A DNA stretch of 30,878 nucleotides from a virus: UHGV virus genome UHGV-1533542; one strand, 5' to 3'. Of the stretch, positions 1-30,878 are shown in pieces; within the stretch, counting starts at the first letter, position 1; the number at the start of each line of letters is the position of its first letter. The position numbers and the translations under genes were made by a program. Below the pieces are notes generated by a model, which did no database searches, was not told the DNA's origin, and saw only the letters and a list, made by a program, of their open reading frames with translations.

Positions 1-369
1 AGATGCTCAGCAGAATCCCCCACATCCTGAAGGAGGTGTATTCAGACAGGCATCCCACCTGACTTCGAATGATGATTATTCATCACTATAGAGAGCAATG
101 ATTCTAAGTGTCATATGAAAGTTCCAATTGATATATATCAAACAAAATAACCCTGATTAATGAATTATTACGTTTATCATGTTAACTCATCATTATTACA
201 TCATCATTGTAAATAATTAAATTAACTTCCATAACATTAAAATATGTATCCACTGACGCTTTTTTACATAACGAAGAATTGACCATTTTGTCCTGTTGTG
301 CCTTAATGTAAGTACCGTCCACGGCGTGGGACATACTTCAAGGAACCTTTTGTGAGTCAGGCAACCAGT

Positions 370-2628: not shown

Positions 2629-3254
2629 ATAGCCAGCACCTTACTGGCAGTGACGTACCGCGCGCGCCGGTCGTCGATGCCGTTCCGGCCACCATTGATA
2701 ATCAGAGTTACACGTACAATATCTCCGGTATACTTCATGCAGCCTTTGCTGGAGAAGAACCAGGCCGCGCTACGAGCCGCGTATTCGTCCTGTGCCAGCA
2801 GTTCAGGATTCTCCAGCAGGTCCACTTTCAGGCCGTTTCCGCAATCACGATAGTTATTCAAACCGGTAATCTGGATAAGTCCGCGGCCACGGTAATTCCA
2901 GCCATCGCCGGGGGCATTGTTCCCCATGCGTTTGCTGTACACCAGATTGGCAATCGCTCGCTGGCGCTCGAGTGGCAATGGTGGTTCACCAGCATGGCGA
3001 CCCAGTGCATTAGCCTGCCCCTGAGTGAGACGCCCAGCCCGAACGAAGTTAGCCAGTCCGCTGACACTGTAGTTGAAATTCTCCTGCAACCTGGTGAAGC
3101 CCCCAGACTCATGCCCGACTTGGGCAATAAACATTGCCTGATCTTCTGCTTTGCTGATACCAAACTCTTTCATCGCAGAAGTTATATGCGAGAACCAGCG
3201 TGCGGCCAGCGCCTCGCTAATACCAGCAGCTCGCTGGAATTGTTTAATCTCCAT
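2625..3254 (-). CDS. endolysin, glycoside hydrolase family 19 (chitinase-like lysozyme)
   Basis: Start at internal ATG 3254 (MEIKQF...), not the longer ORF from 3485; motifs [35 protein letters not shown] typical of GH19 phage endolysins (from memory); sits between holin-like genes and Rz. Confidence 0.88.
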
Positions 3255-6929: not shown

Positions 6930-7033
6930 GTTAAATCTCCAGATAGTCGCAGCACCCGTTGCGCCGCATATCTGGTTATTCTATTACCTGAAAAACCATA
7001 TATGGATAGATAACCCATAAATACGAAAAGATA

Positions 7034-7085: not shown

Positions 7086-7105
7086 TACTGTATATTTATA
7101 CAGTT
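7086..7105. promoter_or_regulatory. LexA (SOS) box
   Basis: TACTGTATATTTATACAGTT: CTGT-N8-ACAG with AT-rich spacer, 18/20 identical to E. coli consensus TACTGTATATATATACAGTA; 20 bp upstream of ATG 7125. Confidence 0.75.
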
Positions 7106-7389: not shown

Positions 7390-7405
7390 GGCCGCAAGAG
7401 CGGCC
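7390..7405. terminator. bidirectional hairpin terminator between convergent genes
   Basis: GGCCGC-AAGA-GCGGCC stem-loop with A/T-rich flanks, between the stop at 7382 (+) and the stop at 7405 (-). Confidence 0.5.
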
Positions 7406-8133
7406 TATCGTTTCGCTTTGTGCTCATCCCAGCACGTTTTGCACCATGCCATTAAGCCGTCCGCATTTTGATTATTAGGGTAAAAGCTGGTTCGTTTTCT
7501 GCGGACATTACAAATTGGGCACCACTTCATATGGCGTGTATTCTTTGGGCCATCGAGACACCTTGCACACCACTTAGTCAATCCATCTGGATTTTTTGAC
7601 GATTTCCTGAATTTTTCATATGGAAGGTTTATTCTGCATCGCAAGCACTGCTTGCTACCACTTGAAACTCTGTTAGCTGATTCTTCTTTTGGCGGCGATG
7701 CAGAAGGTATTCTTGCTGGCTCTGATACTGCCTGAGGTGCTTTTTTAGATGACTGAGACGATATGTCATCACCAGGGAATCTTCCATGATATGCCGGACG
7801 CGTTGACACTCCAGGTGGAAGCTCAGCTGTAAACGGCTTTGGCTGAATCAGTTGCCTCTCTTTTGCTAACTCCTGCTGTTTATAATATGTCTGGATTACC
7901 GCACTATCATAAGCAGGAGGTGCGGAAATATTAGGCGCATTACCTCCAGTTTTTTGAAACTGAGTAGAGGTGTGTTCTATCACCTGTGTACGATTAATCG
8001 TTATCTCCCCATCTTCGGTCTTTATCGTTTTGTTATGATTAACGACCGTACGATCAGAGATCTTAGTCTTGTTCTGGTTGATAACGTAAATAATCACCGC
8101 AACCACACCAACAACTATCCAGAAAACTTCCAT
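7405..8133 (-). CDS. membrane-anchored protein with C-terminal tandem zinc ribbons, function unknown
   Basis: SD GAGGA 6 nt before ATG; N-terminal TM helix (VFWIVVGVVAVIIYVI); Pro/Ser-rich linker; C-terminal Cys cluster CLRC...WCARC...WCPIC...WCKTC (two CxxC-N~20-CxxC units). Confidence 0.7.
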   Translation of the reverse strand: MEVFWIVVGVVAVIIYVINQNKTKISDRTVVNHNKTIKTEDGEITINRTQVIEHTSTQFQKTGGNAPNISAPPAYDSAVIQTYYKQQELAKERQLIQPKPFTAELPPGVSTRPAYHGRFPGDDISSQSSKKAPQAVSEPARIPSASPPKEESANRVSSGSKQCLRCRINLPYEKFRKSSKNPDGLTKWCARCLDGPKNTRHMKWCPICNVRRKRTSFYPNNQNADGLMAWCKTCWDEHKAKR

Positions 8134-8153
8134 TGCTTTTCCTCACAATAACA

Positions 8154-8168
8154 TTACCTTAAAGGTAA
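8154..8168. promoter_or_regulatory. ATTACC-N5-GGTAAT dyad, copy b (perfect; TTACC-TTAAA-GGTAA)
   Basis: Perfect inverted repeat about 20 bp upstream of the RBS of minus-strand gene 7405-8133, in the divergent region shared with the Bro-N gene; weaker related site CTTGCTTTCAGGTGA at 8172-8186. Confidence 0.55.
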
Positions 8169-8246
8169 TATCTTGCTTTCAGGTGATCAAGCGTTAAACG
8201 CAATCAACCAAATACGGTTGATTTTAATATTTCTTCGCGTTTATCA

Positions 8247-8261
8247 TTACCTTTGCGGTAA
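8247..8261. promoter_or_regulatory. ATTACC-N5-GGTAAT dyad, copy b3 (TTACC-TTTGC-GGTAA)
   Basis: Perfect TTACC-N5-GGTAA inside the long 5' region of the Bro-N gene. Confidence 0.5.
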
Positions 8262-8527
8262 ATTTACATCGCACTCCTCTTGTGCCATAGTAATCGGGCA
8301 CTGGATTTTGCCAGTGCCGGGATTGGCGTCCCGGGTTACTACAGAGGCACATATGCCGCATAAGCGGTTTTTTTATGTGTAAAGCGCACCTATTCTATGG
8401 TGGGCTGTGTGGGGGCACCGAAAGGTGCGCCGGGTCCTTTGTAGCCGGTTACGCCAACCCTGCACAGTTCACCACCAACCGATTGGCGTCGGTAGTGGTG
8501 ATTAACCTAACTACAAAGGTGATCACT

Positions 8528-9214
8528 ATGACTGCTAACGTAACCCCATCTGTTTTTCATTTTGAATCAGAGGCAACCATTCGAGCCATTGTTATTGATG
8601 GAAATCCTTGGTTTGTTGCCAAAGACGTTATTAAAGCTCTTCAACTGACAAACCCCACTATGTCAATAAAATCTCTTGATGATGATGAAAGGGCTAAATT
8701 TAACTTAGGCCGTCAAGGCGAAACCAATATTATCAACGAGTCAGGCCTCTACACACTGATCCTCCGCTGCCGCGATGCGGTGACACCAGGCACTATCCCC
8801 TACCGCTTTCGTAAATGGGTTACAGGTGAGGTTCTTCCTCAGATCCGCCGCACCGGAAGTTACATTAAAAACTCGCTCCCGCAGGAAGAACGCATAAAGA
8901 TGGTTGCCGACCAGGTAGCCAACGCCACGGCGTCAGCAGTAATGCAGGCGATGAAGATAGAGAACAAAACCTACAGTGCCCCGCTGAAGCCCGGCTACCG
9001 CAGCCTGATTCACTCGCCGTCTGGTGTTCTCGGCCTGACGGAGAACTCACTGCTGATGAATCTGCTGAACCAGTTACAGGAAGACGGGCACGACGTATCG
9101 GGCGCGGCGGCAGAGCTGACCACCATGTTCTGCTACATCGTCGGTGTGAGCAAATGCCTGCGTGATATCCAGACGCACGCGGAGTACATCAACGACAAAG
9201 CAGGATTCTTCTGA
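8528..9214 (+). CDS. Bro-N domain protein (phage antirepressor-like) with C-terminal domain paralogous to the 85-aa protein
   Basis: ATG 8528 with SD AAGGTG chosen over the RBS-less ATG 8375; N-terminal Bro-N signature (FHFESEATIRAIVIDGNPWFVAKDVIKALQL); hairpin with weak T-tract after stop. Confidence 0.85.
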   Translation: MTANVTPSVFHFESEATIRAIVIDGNPWFVAKDVIKALQLTNPTMSIKSLDDDERAKFNLGRQGETNIINESGLYTLILRCRDAVTPGTIPYRFRKWVTGEVLPQIRRTGSYIKNSLPQEERIKMVADQVANATASAVMQAMKIENKTYSAPLKPGYRSLIHSPSGVLGLTENSLLMNLLNQLQEDGHDVSGAAAELTTMFCYIVGVSKCLRDIQTHAEYINDKAGFF

Positions 9215-9223
9215 CAGAACGGC

Positions 9224-9247
9224 GGCACATGGATGTGCCTTTAAATA
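9224..9247 (+). terminator. possible intrinsic terminator after the Bro-N gene
   Basis: GGCACA-TGGA-TGTGCC hairpin followed by TTTAAATAATT; T-tract is weak. Confidence 0.35.
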
Positions 9248-9287
9248 ATTCTGTACAGATTGCAGACTGTTGGTGAATAGCGTACTA

Positions 9288-9302
9288 TTACCTCAAGGGT
9301 AA
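9288..9302. promoter_or_regulatory. ATTACC-N5-GGTAAT dyad, copy d (TTACC-TCAAG-GGTAA)
   Basis: Perfect TTACC-N5-GGTAA about 60 bp upstream of the small ORF / toxin-like gene pair. Confidence 0.5.
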
Positions 9303-9362
9303 ACGGATTGGTTTCATTTTTATTAATCCGTGTAATGAACTTATGAGATATGAGGTAATGTC

Positions 9363-9542
9363 ATGCGAAACGAAAAATTGCAGATGCGTAGAGCGCAAGC
9401 TGCCGCAAGACGTTCTTTCAATGGAAGCGTAGAGTGCGTAAAAGTTACTATGACAAAAGATCACGCAAGTCGCGTATCCCGCGCTTTCTTTGATTCTCGT
9501 AACAATAAGGAAAATTATGAGTTCGTCTGCGTCGCAGAATGA
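9363..9542 (+). CDS. small ORF (59 aa) upstream of and overlapping the toxin-like gene; antitoxin candidate
   Basis: ATG 9363 preceded by SD GAGG (gaggtaatgtcATG); basic 59-aa product; overlaps next gene start by 26 nt in another frame; below the ORF-track size cutoff; coding status unproven. Confidence 0.3.
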   Translation: MRNEKLQMRRAQAAARRSFNGSVECVKVTMTKDHASRVSRAFFDSRNNKENYEFVCVAE

Positions 9543-10062
9543 TAAAAATCAAATTGTCAGATATAAGGGTCGAGTATTGCATACGCAAAATTTCTCGGCC
9601 CTTTGTGCATCTGATCTTGAGCTGAAGAAAGTATCTGATGCCTTTACCCAGTATTGGAAAACGGGATACCATCCATCTCTTGGTAAAGATGCTGCATTTG
9701 CTCGTCCGACAGAAATGCTTAAACTAAATGTCAGGCATACTCATGTCGATAACCAAGACTATATTCCAGAAGATAGTGATAAAAAACACACTGGTAAAAA
9801 ATCATCTTGGGATGCATGGAAAAATATAGCGTCTGTGCAAGTAAAATGCATACCAACAAGTGATTGCTTTTTAGTTTATTCGGTAAATCACAATCGTGAT
9901 GCGCTGGTTATGTTTTTTGTTGACGCAGATGCCCACAACATAACTGAGCAAGAAGAGTTTAAAGAGGCAGCAATCACTATCAGTTATCAATTCTTTGAGA
10001 AAACAAAAACAGAACCAATGCCTTTAGAAGAAGATCTTTTTTCTGATAAATGGAAGGAATAA
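9517..10062 (+). CDS. 181-aa protein with YafO-like toxin features (candidate mRNA-interferase-type toxin)
   Basis: ATG 9517 with SD AAGGA (ORF opens at TTG 9490); by-eye similarity to my recollection of E. coli YafO (F.QY.K.G..P..GKDA, L.V.HTHV, F/HLVY...AL....D..H); strong terminator follows. Confidence 0.6.
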   Translation: MSSSASQNDKNQIVRYKGRVLHTQNFSALCASDLELKKVSDAFTQYWKTGYHPSLGKDAAFARPTEMLKLNVRHTHVDNQDYIPEDSDKKHTGKKSSWDAWKNIASVQVKCIPTSDCFLVYSVNHNRDALVMFFVDADAHNITEQEEFKEAAITISYQFFEKTKTEPMPLEEDLFSDKWKE

Positions 10063-10148: not shown

Positions 10149-10160
10149 GTGACATGTCAC
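10149..10160. repeat. perfect 12-bp palindrome GTGACATGTCAC, copy i
   Basis: Exact palindrome between the stop of the 46-aa ORF and the minus-strand terminator; identical copies at 27433-27444 and 29698-29709. Confidence 0.8.
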
Positions 10161-18126: not shown

Positions 18127-20597
18127 CAGAATCCCCCAACAGTAAGGCGAGGAATAACGGCAAGAACAGACAGTGGCAACGGGTCAAGCTGACGGATTCT
18201 TACACGTCCGTTTTTGCCCCAGTTACTGTCCAGTTTCACTTCTACTTTTCCGGTAGCATCATCAACAGAATCATCGTAGAACTCGAATTCACGCTGTGGA
18301 TATTCGTACCATTTACCGCCGGGCGTAGTCGCCCAGATGCCGCGACTGGCATTCACAACCAGAGTAACGGACGGGATCACCTGTTTTTTGTCCAGCAGCG
18401 TTTCCTGTCCGCTAATGTTGATATCCAGTGTTTCGAATTCAGCAGTTATTGGCAGGCCGATGTGCACAACAGCCCCCGGTGATTCCAGCGTGACGGCACC
18501 TCCGGAAACCACTTTCTGTGGTTCCACGTTCGCATCAGAGAGAATGTTTACGGTCTGGCCTTCAAGATGAGACATGCCTCCAAATGTCCGGCGCGCCATC
18601 TGCCAGTTCGTGGTGGCCGCATTCCTGAGGGATGGCGGGACGTTCCTGTTAGCACGAACCACTACAGCGGTATTGCTGGTTACAGAAATAATGTCGCAAC
18701 GTAATTCTTTTGACACTTCATCGCCAGTATCAGGATCAGTTCCGGTATAAGGGAACTGTAGTTGCGCACCAACATCACTACTGGTGAAGTACGCACCACC
18801 AGAAACACTGATTGTATATTCCGCGCGGTAATCCCATTCACCAGAACCACCAGTGATGGTCATCGTTCTGTCAGACGTATTTCTTCCATCATAGCTAAGG
18901 CCAGAATCAACAAAGAAAGCATCTTCATCGCTGGTAAATAAACGGCTGGACAGTCTCTCGATGTATCTCACTGTTTGCCCGTTAACGGTTCTGTTAACGA
19001 CGAAATACACCGCATCTTCATTGCCTTCGCTGATACTGCATGTGCTTTCATATTTTCCGGTACTGGATTGTGGTGCCCATGCAAAAACCTGCTGATCACG
19101 CAAATAGGTCATCACCAGTAATTTACCGTCATCACGAATGCAGAAGGCGCTGGAGTAAGGGACAATCGAGAAGCACCAGTCAACAATGCTGTGCTTCTGA
19201 AAAAGATGATTGGCAAGGATGGTCAGGTCGTTCCCCTGATAGCCGTCAACATCGAATGAGTAGGCCAGATCACGGACAACACTGCCTTTCTCCTGGACGA
19301 ACAGAGCAATATTCGCCACGGCAATTGGTGGGACATTGCTCGAGCCATTTGATCCCTGAGAGCTGAATGCAAATGATGATGGGGTAAGCACTTTGTTCTG
19401 GTCGCCAGTGATGACGTACTCACCTCCGGAAGTCAGCGCCACCAGCGAACCAACATCAATCAGGTGACGGATCTCATTAACCTGACGCCCGGCATAGGTG
19501 TAGATAATTCTGTCGTCATCCTGCGTAGGATTGCTTTTGCCAAAATCCTTATAATCCCCGGTACGGCTGGCCCAGATAGTCTGAGGGAACGCAGTCGATG
19601 CGGCGAAGTAAAGGCGTTGTTGATAATAAACAACAGTGCCAGGATAACCGTTAATACTGTTCCAGGCATATTTAGCCCATTTATAGCTGGCATTATCCTC
19701 GCCAACTACCTGCGAAGGGATATAGGAAATCACCTCGGCAGTTGCAGTAGTTCCATTTGCAGCAGAGATACGGGCAATGCCAAAACCACTGTGCAGATAC
19801 TCCCACTCAATGCCGGTATCATCATCACCGGATCCGCCCCAGCCATCCCATGATGTGCCTTCTGTATGCGAAGGGCGCAAAGTGCCTGTTTTGCCTGCTG
19901 TAACGGCGCGATAGTAGTTACTGTCTGCACGGCGAATATCGCCAATCGACGTACTCTTACTGGTTTCCCATACCGGCACAGAATCCACTGCAGGCTGTTC
20001 CAGATAGAACAATTTGCCTACCTGCTCCGCGCCAAAAATTGAGGCGCTTGCCGTTAACGTAATTGTCCCGGTGCTGGCGCTGGCATAAACCGTCACTGAC
20101 TCGTCAATATTGATATCTTCAAATGGCCCGTTCTTCGTTACCACATCAACCAGTTGCCAGTTGTCATGCGCATAGCGGCGCAACTCTTTCGGCGGGTATG
20201 CCGGATGAACCAGCGTAAGCACGTCTGCGCTTTGCGTGAATTTAATTCGGAACAGATCGGCTTCAGTATATGGCGTGGCAATTTCATAAATAACATTGCT
20301 GCTGTTCAGCACCAACGCACCATCTTTGATAACGCGCATGTACTGGTGTCCGAACTCCAGAGCATAAGTCTGAACCGTCGAGAACTGGAACGGGATCAGG
20401 CGGCATTTCCGATTTGGGTATTTGGCGGCACCGACAAAACGCGTACCAGGTCGATTCTCAACGCCGCCATACTGCCGCACGATAAAGTTATCGCACTTGC
20501 GCAATGCCACCTGGTACTTCGCCATGTCGATACGACCGTACAACGACGGTCCAATCTCACCACCGGCAAAGCTGGGCTGGATCCAACTGATAGCCAT
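18126..20597 (-). CDS. tail tube / nozzle-like protein (823 aa)
   Basis: ATG overlaps upstream stop (ATGA); size and position match the tail tubular protein B analogue of podoviruses; no motif-level confirmation. Confidence 0.7.
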   Translation of the reverse strand: MAISWIQPSFAGGEIGPSLYGRIDMAKYQVALRKCDNFIVRQYGGVENRPGTRFVGAAKYPNRKCRLIPFQFSTVQTYALEFGHQYMRVIKDGALVLNSSNVIYEIATPYTEADLFRIKFTQSADVLTLVHPAYPPKELRRYAHDNWQLVDVVTKNGPFEDINIDESVTVYASASTGTITLTASASIFGAEQVGKLFYLEQPAVDSVPVWETSKSTSIGDIRRADSNYYRAVTAGKTGTLRPSHTEGTSWDGWGGSGDDDTGIEWEYLHSGFGIARISAANGTTATAEVISYIPSQVVGEDNASYKWAKYAWNSINGYPGTVVYYQQRLYFAASTAFPQTIWASRTGDYKDFGKSNPTQDDDRIIYTYAGRQVNEIRHLIDVGSLVALTSGGEYVITGDQNKVLTPSSFAFSSQGSNGSSNVPPIAVANIALFVQEKGSVVRDLAYSFDVDGYQGNDLTILANHLFQKHSIVDWCFSIVPYSSAFCIRDDGKLLVMTYLRDQQVFAWAPQSSTGKYESTCSISEGNEDAVYFVVNRTVNGQTVRYIERLSSRLFTSDEDAFFVDSGLSYDGRNTSDRTMTITGGSGEWDYRAEYTISVSGGAYFTSSDVGAQLQFPYTGTDPDTGDEVSKELRCDIISVTSNTAVVVRANRNVPPSLRNAATTNWQMARRTFGGMSHLEGQTVNILSDANVEPQKVVSGGAVTLESPGAVVHIGLPITAEFETLDINISGQETLLDKKQVIPSVTLVVNASRGIWATTPGGKWYEYPQREFEFYDDSVDDATGKVEVKLDSNWGKNGRVRIRQLDPLPLSVLAVIPRLTVGGF

Positions 20598-24109: not shown

Positions 24110-24406
24110 TCACTCCTGTTCACTGGCCTCTTTGGCCATCTTCAAATACTGTTCAGGGCAATGCGCCATAACGCGCTGAAACAGTTCCAGCGCCAGATTG
24201 CGTTGCCCCTCATTAAATGCCATTGCCATAGCATCCATCGGAGAGATAGCGGAAAACACCCGGCCTTTCTCCAGCACCGACCAGACAACGCGACGCCCCT
24301 GTTCACTGCTCATGACAAAGCGAATGTCATCAATTTCACGCTGTGCCATGTCACGTTGCTTACGGGCGTTTTCTTCTTTCAGTTGATCGTCTTCGTAATC
24401 TGTCAT
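24110..24406 (-). CDS. small acidic protein between portal and scaffold genes (98 aa)
   Basis: ORF start overlaps portal stop; function unknown. Confidence 0.55.
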   Translation of the reverse strand: MTDYEDDQLKEENARKQRDMAQREIDDIRFVMSSEQGRRVVWSVLEKGRVFSAISPMDAMAMAFNEGQRNLALELFQRVMAHCPEQYLKMAKEASEQE

Positions 24407-26303: not shown

Positions 26304-26393
26304 ATCAATGACTCCGTACGCAATTAAATTATTACCAATTTAACCACATATGATTTATTTATCGTAGATAGTTGACATTTAACGCGCGAATTA

Positions 26394-26408
26394 TTACCTT
26401 TCAGGTAA
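26394..26408. promoter_or_regulatory. ATTACC-N5-GGTAAT dyad, copy c (TTACC-TTTCA-GGTAA)
   Basis: Perfect TTACC-N5-GGTAA 17 bp downstream of a TTGACA hexamer (26372-26377), between the divergent head operon and the plus-strand tRNA unit. Confidence 0.5.
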
Positions 26409-26730: not shown

Positions 26731-26807
26731 GTGGCATTAGCTCAGTTGGACAGAGCAACCGCCTTCTAAGCGGTTGGTCGCAGGTTCGAATCCTGCATGC
26801 CACGCCA
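26731..26807 (+). tRNA. tRNA-Arg (anticodon UCU), phage-encoded
   Basis: Cloverleaf read by eye: acceptor GTGGCAT/ATGCCAC, D-arm GCTC..GAGC, anticodon stem ACCGC/GCGGT with loop CTTCTAA (anticodon TCT), T-arm GCAGG-TTCGAAT-CCTGC, encoded CCA; body close to but distinct from E. coli argU as I recall it. Confidence 0.88.
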
Positions 26808-27005: not shown

Positions 27006-27428
27006 ATGAAGACAATTGATATGTTGGCTAAGTATCTAAATGAATGGCCATTAAAATATTCTCGTATCGTTCAGGCTGAAGACTGCGTTTTTTATGGCGT
27101 TTTTGCTGGTAATGAAATGCATTACGAAGTAATTCAGAGTGAGGGACTGACCGGGTTAACTCTTAGCGAAGACCATGGTACTAGCGTTACGTTCCATGAC
27201 TGGATAACAGCACAACGTTCTGAAATGGAAAAAGGCGATGTGTTTGATATTTCTCGCTCTGTATACGCCAAAGAAAAAAGTGATGATGATTACATGCGCG
27301 AAAACTTATACAACATGAAGTTACAATGCCTGGCTGAAGTGCTTAGTAAAAGATCTTTACTTGATGTGGTTGGTGCTGAGCAGGACGCCAAGGCAATCAA
27401 CGCCGCATTCGATAAAATAACCTTCTAA
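27006..27428 (+). CDS. 140-aa acidic cytoplasmic protein, unknown function (moron between terminase and portal)
   Basis: ATG with SD AAGGTG; no TM or signal peptide; about 24 Asp/Glu vs 15 Lys/Arg; opposite strand to flanking virion genes; followed by palindrome and terminator. Confidence 0.7.
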   Translation: MKTIDMLAKYLNEWPLKYSRIVQAEDCVFYGVFAGNEMHYEVIQSEGLTGLTLSEDHGTSVTFHDWITAQRSEMEKGDVFDISRSVYAKEKSDDDYMRENLYNMKLQCLAEVLSKRSLLDVVGAEQDAKAINAAFDKITF

Positions 27429-27432
27429 CGCA

Positions 27433-27444
27433 GTGACATGTCAC
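27433..27444. repeat. perfect 12-bp palindrome GTGACATGTCAC, copy ii
   Basis: Exact copy 5 bp after the stop at 27428 and 5 bp before terminator hairpin 27449-27476. Confidence 0.8.
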
Positions 27445-27518: not shown

Positions 27519-28994
27519 TTAAGCATAGGGATCGTAATCTGTGATGGCCTTGCCTTGCTGGTTCTGCTGACCGGGAATTCGCAGACGCTTCGACACAGGG
27601 AACGCAAACGTCAGCAGTAGCGCATCGCCTTTACCAGGAGAACGCCCAAGCCGCTCCTTGATATCTTCCTTCTGTTCGATAATGATTTTACCGTCCACGC
27701 GAACTTTGTACTCTGCCGCCGACAGGTCGTCCGCTGTTTCCTGGTCATCCAGCATGCCGCCCAGCCTCAGCCATGTCTTGCATGAATTGAACATCTCCCC
27801 ACGCTTGTTGAGCATCTGCGGGTCAGTAGACGCGCCACCGAACGGAACAAGTTGCCATGTACGACCCCATCCGTCACCGATTGACTTCAAACCGGTTCCG
27901 TAACCGAAGTCGATGAACACCGCGTCAGCCTGATACTGGTCTTCAAAGTCAGCGATACGCTTTGCCATAATCAGATCGTCAGTGGTCTTGTTGCCAGTCC
28001 ACAGCACCTTACTGTGCAGCCCCTGCCGCAGGTATATCACAGCGTCATCAACGCCTGAGTATGCCGGGTCAACGCCGATTATCACCGGAGCATGTGCAAC
28101 CTGCGCAGCGGTGACCACCCGTTTCATTGCCTCGTCAGTAAGTCCGGTAGGGATAAACTGCAATTCAGATGCATCCGGGAATATGCCGCGCACACGGATT
28201 TTAACGAAGTCGCTGTCTTCCCCGTAGTCATCAACCCATTTCTGCAACTGCTGTTTGTTGGTGCCTTCCACCGTCCGGCTGTCAATCTGCGCAGTTTTCC
28301 AGCGGTGTTTATATTTGCGGAAACATTCGCGGAAACGTCCGGTATTACGCGTCGGGTTTCCGAACGCCACCCAGATAATCTCAGTGTCTTCGTCCGTTAG
28401 CGCACCCTCGGCAACTTCCCACACCAGATCCGCAATGTTCGACGCTTCATCGAATACCACGATGATGCGTTTGCGCTCGTTGTGTAGTCCGGCGAATGCC
28501 TCAGTGTTGTGCTCAGACCAGGGTATTGCGTCAGCTCGCCACCGCTTGTCGTGTCCAGGATCATTGCTGTACATCGCGGTAGCGGTACAGGTAAACCAGT
28601 CTTTCGTGATAGCAAGGTTCGACCACTTGATAATTTCCGGCCAGGTCTTCGTTCGTAGCTGGTTGTCGGTGTTGGCGGTCACCACAACCTTACAATCCTC
28701 GCAAGTGGACATGCCCCAGTTGATCAGCATTGAGATGAATGCGGATTTACCAATACCGTGACCCGAAGCGCGTGCCAGCATAAGCGGCTGATAGCGCGTC
28801 TCTGGATTCTGCAGGTGATCACGTATCTCTCGGAACGCATCAGCCTGCCACTGACGTGGACCGGTGGCATGTGCCAGTTCAGTCCCATCTTCCCCCCACG
28901 GGAACGCATAGAGGGCATAGCCAAGCGGATCGTGAGTGAACCCTGCAATATCCTCGATTAACTGCTCTTCAGGAGATAACGCTGTATCTGTCAC
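27519..28994 (-). CDS. terminase large subunit
   Basis: 491 aa; Walker A-like SGHGIGKS in N-terminal ATPase part, acidic nuclease-type C-terminal part; GTG start overlaps terS stop; directly upstream of portal module. Confidence 0.92.
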   Translation of the reverse strand: MTDTALSPEEQLIEDIAGFTHDPLGYALYAFPWGEDGTELAHATGPRQWQADAFREIRDHLQNPETRYQPLMLARASGHGIGKSAFISMLINWGMSTCEDCKVVVTANTDNQLRTKTWPEIIKWSNLAITKDWFTCTATAMYSNDPGHDKRWRADAIPWSEHNTEAFAGLHNERKRIIVVFDEASNIADLVWEVAEGALTDEDTEIIWVAFGNPTRNTGRFRECFRKYKHRWKTAQIDSRTVEGTNKQQLQKWVDDYGEDSDFVKIRVRGIFPDASELQFIPTGLTDEAMKRVVTAAQVAHAPVIIGVDPAYSGVDDAVIYLRQGLHSKVLWTGNKTTDDLIMAKRIADFEDQYQADAVFIDFGYGTGLKSIGDGWGRTWQLVPFGGASTDPQMLNKRGEMFNSCKTWLRLGGMLDDQETADDLSAAEYKVRVDGKIIIEQKEDIKERLGRSPGKGDALLLTFAFPVSKRLRIPGQQNQQGKAITDYDPYA

Positions 28995-29587
28995 TGATTA
29001 CCATCCTGACGTTCTTTGAGTCGCTTCCTGGCTGCTGCTATGCGATCAGCAATTGTCACATTCACATTAACATCCAGACGTTCTTTGAATGCGTTGACAT
29101 CAACATGCTTACCAATCAGCTCAAGGTTCTTCACCTTGTCAGGCCATTTAATTTTTTTGAGGATTGTCTCTATTGAATCCTCGTTCATGTTCATGATGGT
29201 CGATGACAGATCAAAGCCACTAAGCGTAGTGCGCCAGATTTTCGGCCACTCACGGATTGGTTTAAGGCTCCCATCGTCGTTGAGGATGTCGATCACGTCC
29301 ATCTGGTCGATCTCCACCAGGCGCATGAGAACGTAATCAGCACTGACACGCATTCGTTTGTTGCGCTCCTCCATCAACTCGGCAATCCGTTTCTGAATGC
29401 GTTCATCGCGCATCATGACACTGGCTTTAACTGCCGCTGTATTTGGGGAGAATCCTGCGTTAATCGCAGCCTGAGTCTGGTTTTCAGGCGTTTTGATGTA
29501 TGACTGGCAATAAGCCTCCTGCATTGCTGTGAGCGGCTTAAATTGCGTTGATTTGCGTTTATAGGTTTTAGGTTCAGCAGGCATCAT
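28991..29587 (-). CDS. terminase small subunit
   Basis: Start set at ATG 29587 (MMPAEPK...) because the TTG-opened extension to 29665 contains an intrinsic terminator; HTH-type segment TAMQEAYCQSYIKTPENQTQAAINAGFS typical of small terminases (memory). Confidence 0.8.
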   Translation of the reverse strand: MMPAEPKTYKRKSTQFKPLTAMQEAYCQSYIKTPENQTQAAINAGFSPNTAAVKASVMMRDERIQKRIAELMEERNKRMRVSADYVLMRLVEIDQMDVIDILNDDGSLKPIREWPKIWRTTLSGFDLSSTIMNMNEDSIETILKKIKWPDKVKNLELIGKHVDVNAFKERLDVNVNVTIADRIAAARKRLKERQDGNQ

Positions 29588-29630
29588 AACCACCGTGGTA
29601 ATTGTTACCGTTGTGGTAATAGTACCATGC

Positions 29631-29656
29631 AAAATAAAGCCGCCATAGTTGGCGGC
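29631..29656 (-). terminator. intrinsic terminator immediately upstream of terS
   Basis: GCCGCC-ATAGTT-GGCGGC hairpin followed on the minus strand by TTTATTTT; lies between the nin-like genes and the terS ATG. Confidence 0.6.
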
Positions 29657-29697
29657 AGTATTCAAAATCCATCAAATTCATCATGCATAATCTACTC

Positions 29698-29709
29698 GTG
29701 ACATGTCAC
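29698..29709. repeat. perfect 12-bp palindrome GTGACATGTCAC, copy iii
   Basis: Exact copy overlapping the stop codon of the 112-aa Zn-finger gene, about 40 bp upstream (minus sense) of the pre-terS terminator. Confidence 0.8.
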
Positions 29710-30044
29710 ACTATTAATTTCGTTTCATGCCAGCCTTTAGTCACCCAGCATTGCGAGTCACCATTACACGGGCATGAATTAACTGGAACTCTCTCGCCGC
29801 ACTTACCGCAACGTTTTCTGCTGATCGATTTTATACGCCCGCGCACGCGTGCATCATCCTGGCGGATCAGTAACGCTATATACTCACCAAATTCGTAAGG
29901 CGCACGCCCGGGGCGACGCGTGGCACAGTTACGCTCCAGCATTTCAATTTCCTGAGCATCAAGCACAATCTCCAGCTTACGCACACCAGATGCAGCTTGT
30001 CTGGCTCTCTGAGCGGCTTTGCGCTCTGCTGCTGATTTAGCCAT
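29706..30044 (-). CDS. 112-aa basic protein with C-terminal Cys4 zinc-finger-like motif (possible late-gene regulator)
   Basis: ATG 30044 with SD AAGGT (ORF opens at TTG 30047); N-terminal basic helical region; C-terminal CGKCG...CPC; last gene before terS. Confidence 0.55.
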   Translation of the reverse strand: MAKSAAERKAAQRARQAASGVRKLEIVLDAQEIEMLERNCATRRPGRAPYEFGEYIALLIRQDDARVRGRIKSISRKRCGKCGERVPVNSCPCNGDSQCWVTKGWHETKLIV

Positions 30045-30871: not shown

Positions 30872-30878
30872 AGCAACG

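Follow-up and report, generated by a model that had tools for sequence, protein, structure and literature searches.

The window analysed here, the whole 30,878-nt stretch of the viral genome UHGV-1533542, belongs by sequence comparison to the epsilon15/phiV10-like temperate podoviruses (Uetakevirus), its best megablast match being phage PAS61 at 98.3% identity. Our subject is the 118-bp interval between the gene of a 112-amino-acid (112-aa) protein, a homolog of epsilon15 gp49 and N15 gp46, and terS. The late genes lie on the minus strand, and reading that strand from position 30878 the nin-like genes are followed by the 112-aa gene, terS, terL and then the portal and tail genes (Table 1); in every Uetakevirus examined the 112-aa gene is the last early gene and stands directly upstream of terS. 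The best explanation of the interval is that it is probably the border of two transcription units, at which the early-right operon would end and a terS promoter controlled by the prophage repressor (Rep) would begin.

Table 1. Genes and sequence features at the 112-aa gene/terS border, and further copies of its motifs in the window
Feature	Position	Strand	Remarks
112-aa gene	29706-30044	-	Final gene of the early-right (nin-like) operon
Palindrome GTGAC-AT-GTCAC (GTGACATGTCAC)	29698-29709		Overlaps the TGA stop (29708-29706) of the 112-aa gene
Intrinsic terminator closing the early-right operon	29631-29656	-	Hairpin and tail TTTATTTT
Predicted extended -10, TGgTACTAT, of a terS-terL promoter	29619-29627	-	Predicted start near 29612
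Operator O1, TTACC-ACAAC-GGTAA, perfect	29605-29619		Overlaps the end of the -10 and the predicted start
Operator O2, TTACC-ACGGT-GGTTA, one mismatch	29587-29601		18 bp from O1
terS, small terminase, 197 aa	28991-29584	-	Pfam Terminase_2, 1e-29
terL	27519-28994	-	
Second palindrome copy	27433-27444		After terL, 4 nt from a terminator hairpin, convergent with a plus-strand moron
Operator dyad upstream of the portal operon	26394-26408		Homolog of epsilon15 repressor site 2931..2947
Third palindrome copy	10149-10160		End of the structural (tail) operon, immediately ahead of a terminator hairpin
Operator dyad upstream of the YafO-like gene	9288-9302		
Operator dyads upstream of the Bro-N antirepressor-like gene	8154-8168, 8247-8261		

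Every element that the initial annotation had listed in this interval was found in its place when the window was checked, and the terminator it had placed before terS is a genuine, strong intrinsic terminator between the last early gene and terS. Its stem, GCCGCCA/TGGCGGC (29656-29650 and 29645-29639), comprises 7 bp with six GC pairs around the loop ACTA, the tail occupies 29638-29631, and the folding energy of -14.5 kcal/mol (z = -4.1) was equalled by none of 200 shuffles. The homologous structure of epsilon15, after gp49, is annotated there as a rho-independent terminator (39646..39672). Conservation was assessed on an alignment of 32 distinct versions of the 112-aa gene/terS intergenic interval from relatives, in which the operator arms, both terminator stems and the string TG-n-TA(C/T)TAT are invariant, while the operator spacers and the n of TGn (G/T/A) vary. 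A sub-threshold Rfam match to the small RNA rseX on the minus strand (29632-29717; 28.6 bits against a gathering score of 50, E 0.09-0.26) spans the stretch from palindrome to terminator, is mainly driven by the terminator, and was treated as chance, rseX of K-12 lying outside a prophage context.

Between the terminator and terS lie two copies of one dyad, O1 and O2, the 17-bp form of O1 being ATTACC-N5-GGTAAC (29604-29620). The window holds five perfect copies of TTACC-N5-GGTAA where 0.00 are expected (none in 100 shuffles), all of them in intergenic DNA, the spacer of the window copies is 5 bp without exception, and a one-mismatch copy precedes the tailspike gene. The smaller repeats first described over the terS ribosome-binding region can be read in terms of these dyads. 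The 13-mer GGTAATTGTTACC (GGTAA-N3-TTACC, 29597-29609) is present, but it is the right arm of O1 joined to the left arm of O2 and is no unit of its own, with two matches at up to two mismatches against 0.59 expected. The direct repeat GTGGTAAT (29595-29602 and 29613-29620; four occurrences in the window against 0.72 expected) is likewise real, but its copies are the left arms of two 15-bp dyads, and it is the 18-bp spacing of O1 and O2 that gives the appearance of a direct repeat. Nor are the operator pentamers found here only in inverted order, as had been stated, since the operator-type dyad has the same order and spacing as those at 8154, 8247, 9288 and 26394.

The same dyad recurs throughout the relatives. 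In PAS61, epsilon15, PAT1, SPC32H and BUCT711 clusters of it flank the repressor gene on both sides and it lies upstream of both terS and the portal operon (the terS dyad of BUCT711 being split across the ends of the linear record), and in the first four of these phages it also stands ahead of the tailspike gene. A second site follows at a distance of 18 bp in the window, PAS61, epsilon15 and PAT1 alike. The GenBank record of epsilon15 carries a 'protein_bind: repressor' feature at 12..27, shortly ahead of terS, which begins at 47, and this site together with a second one at 30-44 aligns with O1 and O2; further repressor sites are annotated at 2931..2947, 19895..19911 and 35906..35922, with three more to the left of the repressor gene (32479-32632). 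Because the dyad is genus-wide and is annotated as a repressor site in epsilon15, O1 and O2 are, on motif identity, ordinary Uetakevirus immunity operators, and the arrangement at terS is already described, as a prediction, for the type phage epsilon15. The suggestion that the dyads form an element specific to terS is not borne out, the same dyads being repressor sites annotated at the homologous position in epsilon15.

Two further motifs were seen near Rep operators. All four genomes scanned have a second conserved box, CATATGTGGTT(T/A) with the core TGTGGTT, in intergenic regions of the portal, tailspike, lysis and nin genes, placed roughly 35-50 bp downstream of Rep operators (window minus strand, 26341-26352 and 6993-7004; L012, 8881, 15667, 33088 and 37402; L013, 2988, 19940, 24751 and 35953, L numbers denoting the loci compared). 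In the nin unit this box forms the spacer of a TTGATT/TTGAAA-17-TTTAAT/TTAAAT promoter; outside the nin unit it may provide TGn plus a -10, and it is absent from the terS unit. The other motif is a perfect LexA-box-like sequence, ACTGTATAAATATACAGT, at about 7087-7104. Some 40 bp separate it from the one-mismatch operator that precedes the tailspike gene, and conserved counterparts of it are present in epsilon15, PAT1 and PAS61, in which the small antirepressor gene ant or the equivalent of ant is divergently transcribed.

The conserved candidate -10 of a terS promoter lies 3 nt past the T-tract of the terminator; it has the features of an extended -10 (TG, one base, then a hexamer with A2 and T6), its final two bases being shared with the 17-bp form of O1. 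Invariant TG and TAYTAT around a variable n is the pattern expected of an extended -10 under selection. The geometry of -10 and operator also recurs in the window: TATCAT runs into TACC at 8242-8247, with TTGATT upstream at an 18-nt spacer (8218-8247), a promoter that the sigma-70 scan found unaided, and TACTAT runs into TACC at 9283-9288. From the conserved -10 and this recurring geometry we infer a terS-terL promoter whose leader of about 25 nt would contain O2 and the Shine-Dalgarno sequence GGTGG (29594-29590). This Shine-Dalgarno sequence lies within O2, which ends 3 nt ahead of the conserved start codon. Late expression beyond a terminator had been thought to need either antitermination or a promoter squeezed into about 45 bp; the promoter fits best, given the conserved extended -10, and antitermination would not be required.

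The reading frame of terS can be adjusted on the same comparison. The start conserved among relatives (epsilon15, SPC32H, Tyrion and L038) is the second ATG (29584-29582), while the first ATG is missing in epsilon15-type phages and L038. Both phiV10 and PAS61 annotate a long terS of 675 nt with a TTG start (L003 41-715; L002 6653-7327; window 29585-29665). Start-codon conservation supports the short terS from 29584 over this long form, which would cross a terminator and two operators, and the phiV10/PAS61 annotation would be corrected accordingly. The start of the phiV10 record corresponds to window position 29705, within the palindrome; it was considered as a cos site and rejected, as it is merely the base following the stop codon of the last gene. 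The literature on Uetakevirus and PhageTerm offered nothing useful on genome ends.

The terminator, the identity of the operators, the conservation of both and their geometry can be read from the sequence and its comparison with relatives, and they suggest a scheme in which Rep would bind at O1/O2 and the extended -10 would be active as a promoter. In this scheme the early-right operon would stop at the strong terminator (29656-29631), and a small extended -10 promoter lacking a -35, placed right behind it, would serve terS-terL. The ATTACC-N5-GGTAAT tandem of O1 and O2 would cover the end of the -10, the start site and the leader, so that in a lysogen the prophage Rep, a tetrameric helix-turn-helix protein of palindromic sites, would shut the terS promoter directly. 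Rep would act likewise at the dyads before the portal operon and the antirepressor gene and at the one-mismatch tailspike copy, and in relatives also at OL/OR. Late expression would follow from loss of Rep via the antirepressor, with neither an Ogr-type activator nor a Q-type antiterminator being necessary at terS, and the genome would be divided by terminators into several units, each opened by Rep operators. A single Rep tetramer would fit a pair of sites with a spacing of 17-18 bp, which is what OR and terS have. The Rep of SPC32H binds palindromic sites as a tetramer that is disassembled by Ant (reviewed in PMC9638917). In phage ZX5, a near relative whose TerS protein is 100% identical, over-expression of the repressor lowered the transcripts of endolysin by 99.99% and of holin by 99.97% (PMC9782041), which is consistent with direct repressor control without proving it.

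Several points weigh against this scheme. The terS promoter has no match to a -35 and was not reported by the sigma-70 consensus scan, and an absent -35 is also typical of activator-dependent promoters. The predicted binding of Rep at O1/O2 rests on motif identity and on the GenBank prediction, and co-variation of repressor and terS dyad was uninformative, since every Uetakevirus examined has the same operator motif. Simultaneous derepression of all units would also leave the timing of early and late genes without explanation, and their order would then need promoter strength or another factor.

The 112-aa protein had been proposed as a late regulator on account of its C-terminal cysteine motif, in analogy to Ogr/Delta. 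The motif exists: of C79, C82, C91, C93 and C99, the first two do not vary among 56 homologs, C99 shows conservation of at least 90%, and R8 and R13 of a basic N-terminal arm are also conserved to at least 90% in the homolog alignment. The analogy does not hold, as the protein matches no Pfam family and gave no hit to PF04606 (Ogr_Delta) at E values up to 1 (the positive control, Yersinia phage gp53, scored 2e-19), is modelled with a different fold and has homologs that coexist with Ogr or Q. Nor was there a Q-family Pfam hit. The protein matches PHROG 536 ('transcriptional regulator') and has 726 database relatives in 154 clusters at 50% identity; among 120 listed, those with a name are called 'hypothetical protein' or 'phage protein'. 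A confident AlphaFold2 model (mean predicted local distance difference test score, pLDDT, 90.7) models as a ribbon-helix-helix (RHH)-like fold with a C-terminal cysteine zinc ribbon, for which sequence support is weak. A PDB search with the single sequence found nothing, a Foldseek search against the PDB and a viral library was uninformative, and a PDB profile search found the long helix and zinc ribbon to be marginally like TraR and YbiI (E ~0.03). As none of the 56 members matches the DksA/TraR domain zf-dskA_traR (PF01258), this similarity is treated only as a lead. The 112-aa protein is very probably a sequence-specific DNA-binding regulator, which leaves that part of the proposal standing, whereas Ogr-type activation of terS is unlikely. 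In the SPN1S subgroup (SPC32H, L154 38396-38632; SPN1S; SPN9TCW) the homolog lacks the basic N-terminal arm, its 5' part being swapped for an unrelated open reading frame, and a possible TTG start preserves the beta-strand.

The end of the gene itself offers a candidate DNA site for this protein, the palindrome GTGAC-NN-GTCAC. The copy over the stop codon, which the initial annotation had numbered as the third of a series, is one of three exact copies in the window, accompanied by one 1-mismatch copy, against 0.07 expected (GTGACNNGTCAC, three against 0.03), and is invariant across the 32 intervals save for rare single-base variants. The 1-mismatch copy (window 24343-24354 and L012 18193; GTGCCATGTCAC, on the other strand GTGACATGGCAC) lies inside a small gene after the portal gene and is conserved in PAS61, not in epsilon15. 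Well beyond the genus, GTGAC-N(1-3)-GTCAC occurs, almost invariably as the 12-bp N2 form, within -15 to +60 of the gene end at 96 of 108 non-identical homolog loci, some of whose homologs are only ~30-40% identical, where by our estimate chance would supply about 3e-4 per 350 bp. Of nine phage lineages examined, all but the P2-like Yersinia one have the palindrome at the gene end or a short way behind it. Among the 51 sites listed from homolog loci 47 have the 12-bp N2 form (the others are one of 11 bp and four distal ones of 13 bp), and the arms are constant while the spacer is free (AT, TG, GG, AC, GC, CC, AG, AA). Of the lineages without a site in that range, the Vibrio and L147-L150 groups have one within ~340 bp, and sites lie further off in L152 (~1.5 kb) and the Yersinia phage (~3.4 kb from the homolog). 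Stop codon and palindrome overlap in Uetakeviruses, in N15-type phages and in the L146 lineage, and in ZF40 the palindrome lies 2 nt past the stop; in distant lineages AT-rich intergenic DNA contains tandem pairs of palindromes, separated by 23-35 bp, an arrangement resembling RHH operator pairs.

We lean towards the view that this palindrome would be the DNA site of the 112-aa RHH/zinc-ribbon protein, which would place the site between the protein's own gene and the next unit, namely terS in Uetakevirus and in Vibrio phage K233. One caveat is that SPC32H-type phages have lost the basic N-terminal arm yet keep all three palindromes. In each Uetakevirus two extra palindromes sit beside terminators, the first behind terL and the second where the tail operon ends; N15 has extra copies between gene 33 and a terminator and inside repA, and in K233 palindromes lie 19 nt before the terS start and 20 nt before the start of another gene. 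Since the three palindromes stand at operon ends beside terminators, two of these being convergent junctions, we conjecture that an insulating or termination-modulating role fits them better than promoter activation. A bolder extension, which we regard as unlikely, would make the protein the founder of an undescribed regulator family (RHH-like fold plus cysteine zinc ribbon) that recognises GTGAC-NN-GTCAC, a sequence which podo-, sipho- and myoviruses alike would retain at the 3' end of the regulator's gene, and that would supply the missing early-to-late control of Uetakevirus at the early/terS, terL/moron and tail operon/ant borders by modulating termination and read-through or by insulating, without activating promoters. 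The palindrome sequence was found in no relevant paper in the literature, and its pairing with the gene in different phage families seems to be new; this pairing provides a widespread uncharacterised phage protein with a precise candidate DNA site and offers a handle on the timing of late expression in these phages.

That the 112-aa zinc-finger protein might activate a late promoter before terS in the manner of Ogr/Delta is suggested by the position of its gene, which closes the early genes and immediately precedes terS in all Uetakeviruses examined, by a predicted terS promoter that, like activator-dependent promoters, has no -35, by its probable DNA site upstream of that promoter, and by the additional palindrome just ahead of terS in K233. 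Besides lacking a PF04606 match, the protein carries its cysteine cluster C-terminally, behind the RHH-like fold, and its family coexists with the supposed counterparts: a true Ogr (PF04606, 2e-19) accompanies the homolog in the P2-like Yersinia phage, and N15 (gp46) and ZF40 (gp22) have homologs in nin-like regions besides an annotated Q. Palindrome and promoter stand at a distance that varies by 18 bp, from about -92 in the phiV10 type to -74 in the epsilon15 type. Klebsiella relatives even have a whole gene, umuD-like and controlled by an SOS box, inserted between the 112-aa gene and terS, with operator and -10 remaining beside terS and the palindrome remaining beside the 112-aa gene. In K233 and N15, moreover, the palindrome is either at the next ribosome-binding site or no more than 8 nt away from it, which leaves no space for a downstream promoter. 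The variable distance, the inserted gene and the placement in K233 and N15 make activation of the terS promoter by the 112-aa protein unlikely. Of the inserted gene itself, we note that a perfect SOS box, TACTGTTTAAATATACAGTA, accompanies it in Klebsiella Uetakevirus-like phages (L010 and L011, 3283-3745; L159, 34-438), and that it is umuD-like in L010 and BUCT711.

We think it just as improbable that the palindrome is the loading site, next to a promoter, of a Q-like system in which the terminator forms a tR'-type barrier and the protein renders the polymerase terminator-resistant. The order of gene, site, terminator and late genes does mirror lambda Q, qut and tR' as generally known, all three palindromes of the genus abut intrinsic terminators, and the weak helix and zinc-ribbon profile similarity points to the RNA-polymerase-binding proteins TraR and YbiI. 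GTGACA of the palindrome also agrees with five of the six bases of the -35 consensus and the scan reports GTGACA-18-CATGAT (9/12), a promoter candidate that we rejected on finding both its -10 and its spacing unconserved. The DNA between palindrome and terminator is itself unconserved, with a length of either 40 or 22 nt depending on the type, so that in epsilon15 a transcript starting from a palindrome promoter would land within the terminator stem, and it is this lack of conservation and the short distance in epsilon15 that make the scheme unlikely. The missing Q-family Pfam hit points the same way; at the terL junction the hairpin comes before the palindrome in the late direction, and N15, ZF40 and the Klebsiella relatives have no terminator after the palindrome.

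An effect at the RNA level, with the repeats of read-through transcripts folding into a hairpin that hides the terS ribosome-binding site, is very unlikely as an explanation of the dyads. The 56-nt segment 29630-29575 does fold to -20.7 kcal/mol (z = -3.6), GGUGG pairing with an upstream CCAC, but adjacent palindromic operators fold so in any case, RNA from the predicted start has no significant structure (z = -0.7), the other copies of the dyad are not beside ribosome-binding sites, and conserved arms with a free spacer fit recognition of DNA by a protein; such a hairpin could be compatible with repressor control of the promoter. Least probable of all, with hardly any likelihood in our judgement, is that the dyads are small-terminase sites of a pac or cosB-like packaging signal: repeated half-sites before terS resemble SPP1 pacL or lambda cosB, and the terminase belongs to Terminase_2, with the terS of Bacillus phage SF6 and the terL of Shigella phage Sf6 named as similar in the epsilon15 record, yet each genome has the identical dyad at 10-15 further intergenic sites of promoter type, both flanks of the repressor gene included, epsilon15 annotates it as a repressor site, and the terS dyad is indistinguishable from the other copies.

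Elsewhere in the window, a tRNA-Arg(tct) gene (26731-26807, plus strand) and a 140-aa moron of no known family (27006-27428, plus strand) lie between terL and the portal operon, with plus-strand terminators on both flanks. A module at 7405-10062, between the tail genes and the tailspike gene, differs from what PAS61 and epsilon15 have at the same place; it codes for a minus-strand 242-aa protein with a weak Stc1-like cysteine domain and contains the Bro-N antirepressor-like gene (8375-9214), with two Rep operators ahead, and the YafO-toxin-like gene (9490-10062), with one.

Among the known systems to which the locus can be compared is MatP-matS of the E. coli Ter macrodomain, MatP being an RHH DNA binder like Arc, CopG, ParD and TraM. 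MatP has a four-helix bundle and a coiled coil, neither of which is present in the phage protein, which adds a zinc ribbon; homology between the two sequences was not significant (hhalign probability 0.6%). The matS consensus GTGACRNYGTCAC (PMC6907758) has the GTGAC/GTCAC arms of the phage palindrome, in a 13-bp site with a 3-nt spacer as opposed to 12 bp with a 2-nt spacer. Sites of 13 bp with matS-like arms, GTGACCGTGTCAC and GTGACCGCGTCAC, were seen besides the 12-bp palindromes in loci L147-L150, 2.3-2.9 kb upstream of the homolog. With P2 Ogr and P4 Delta the protein has in common its small size, at least four cysteines and a gene near the late genes, but it lacks PF04606, its cysteines are C-terminal to the RHH-like domain, and its family coexists with a true Ogr. 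As in the lambda Q/PR'/tR' region, a DNA site, a terminator and the late genes come in turn behind the last early gene. The differences are the lack of Q-family homology, the absence of a conserved promoter or pause region from the stretch that joins site and terminator, the variable spacing of these two, and the presence in N15 and ZF40 of the 112-aa homolog besides an annotated Q.

Another comparison is with the 'stoperators' of mycobacteriophage L5 gp71, reportedly described by Brown et al. in 1997, which are said to be asymmetric and orientation-dependent and to block elongation. Both systems have one immunity repressor with many genome-wide sites beyond the immunity region and direct silencing, predicted for the window, of late and other units, but the sites of the window are symmetric dyads on or next to promoters, and an elongation block is not indicated. 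Closest is the Rep-operator-Ant system of epsilon15 and SPC32H, of which the window is another member. ATTACC-N5-GGTAAT is shared upstream of terS and of the portal operon, the terminator after the gp49 homolog of epsilon15 is the same as in the window, and the Bro-N antirepressor-like gene is flanked by the same dyads. The antirepressor module is of the Bro-N type as opposed to the small Ant of SPC32H and epsilon15, and the window's own repressor gene lies outside the window; otherwise nothing essential differs. Our data suggest that in epsilon15-like phages every transcription unit, terS-terL among them, carries an immunity operator, with which the lysogen would silence its packaging genes directly and not via a cascade.

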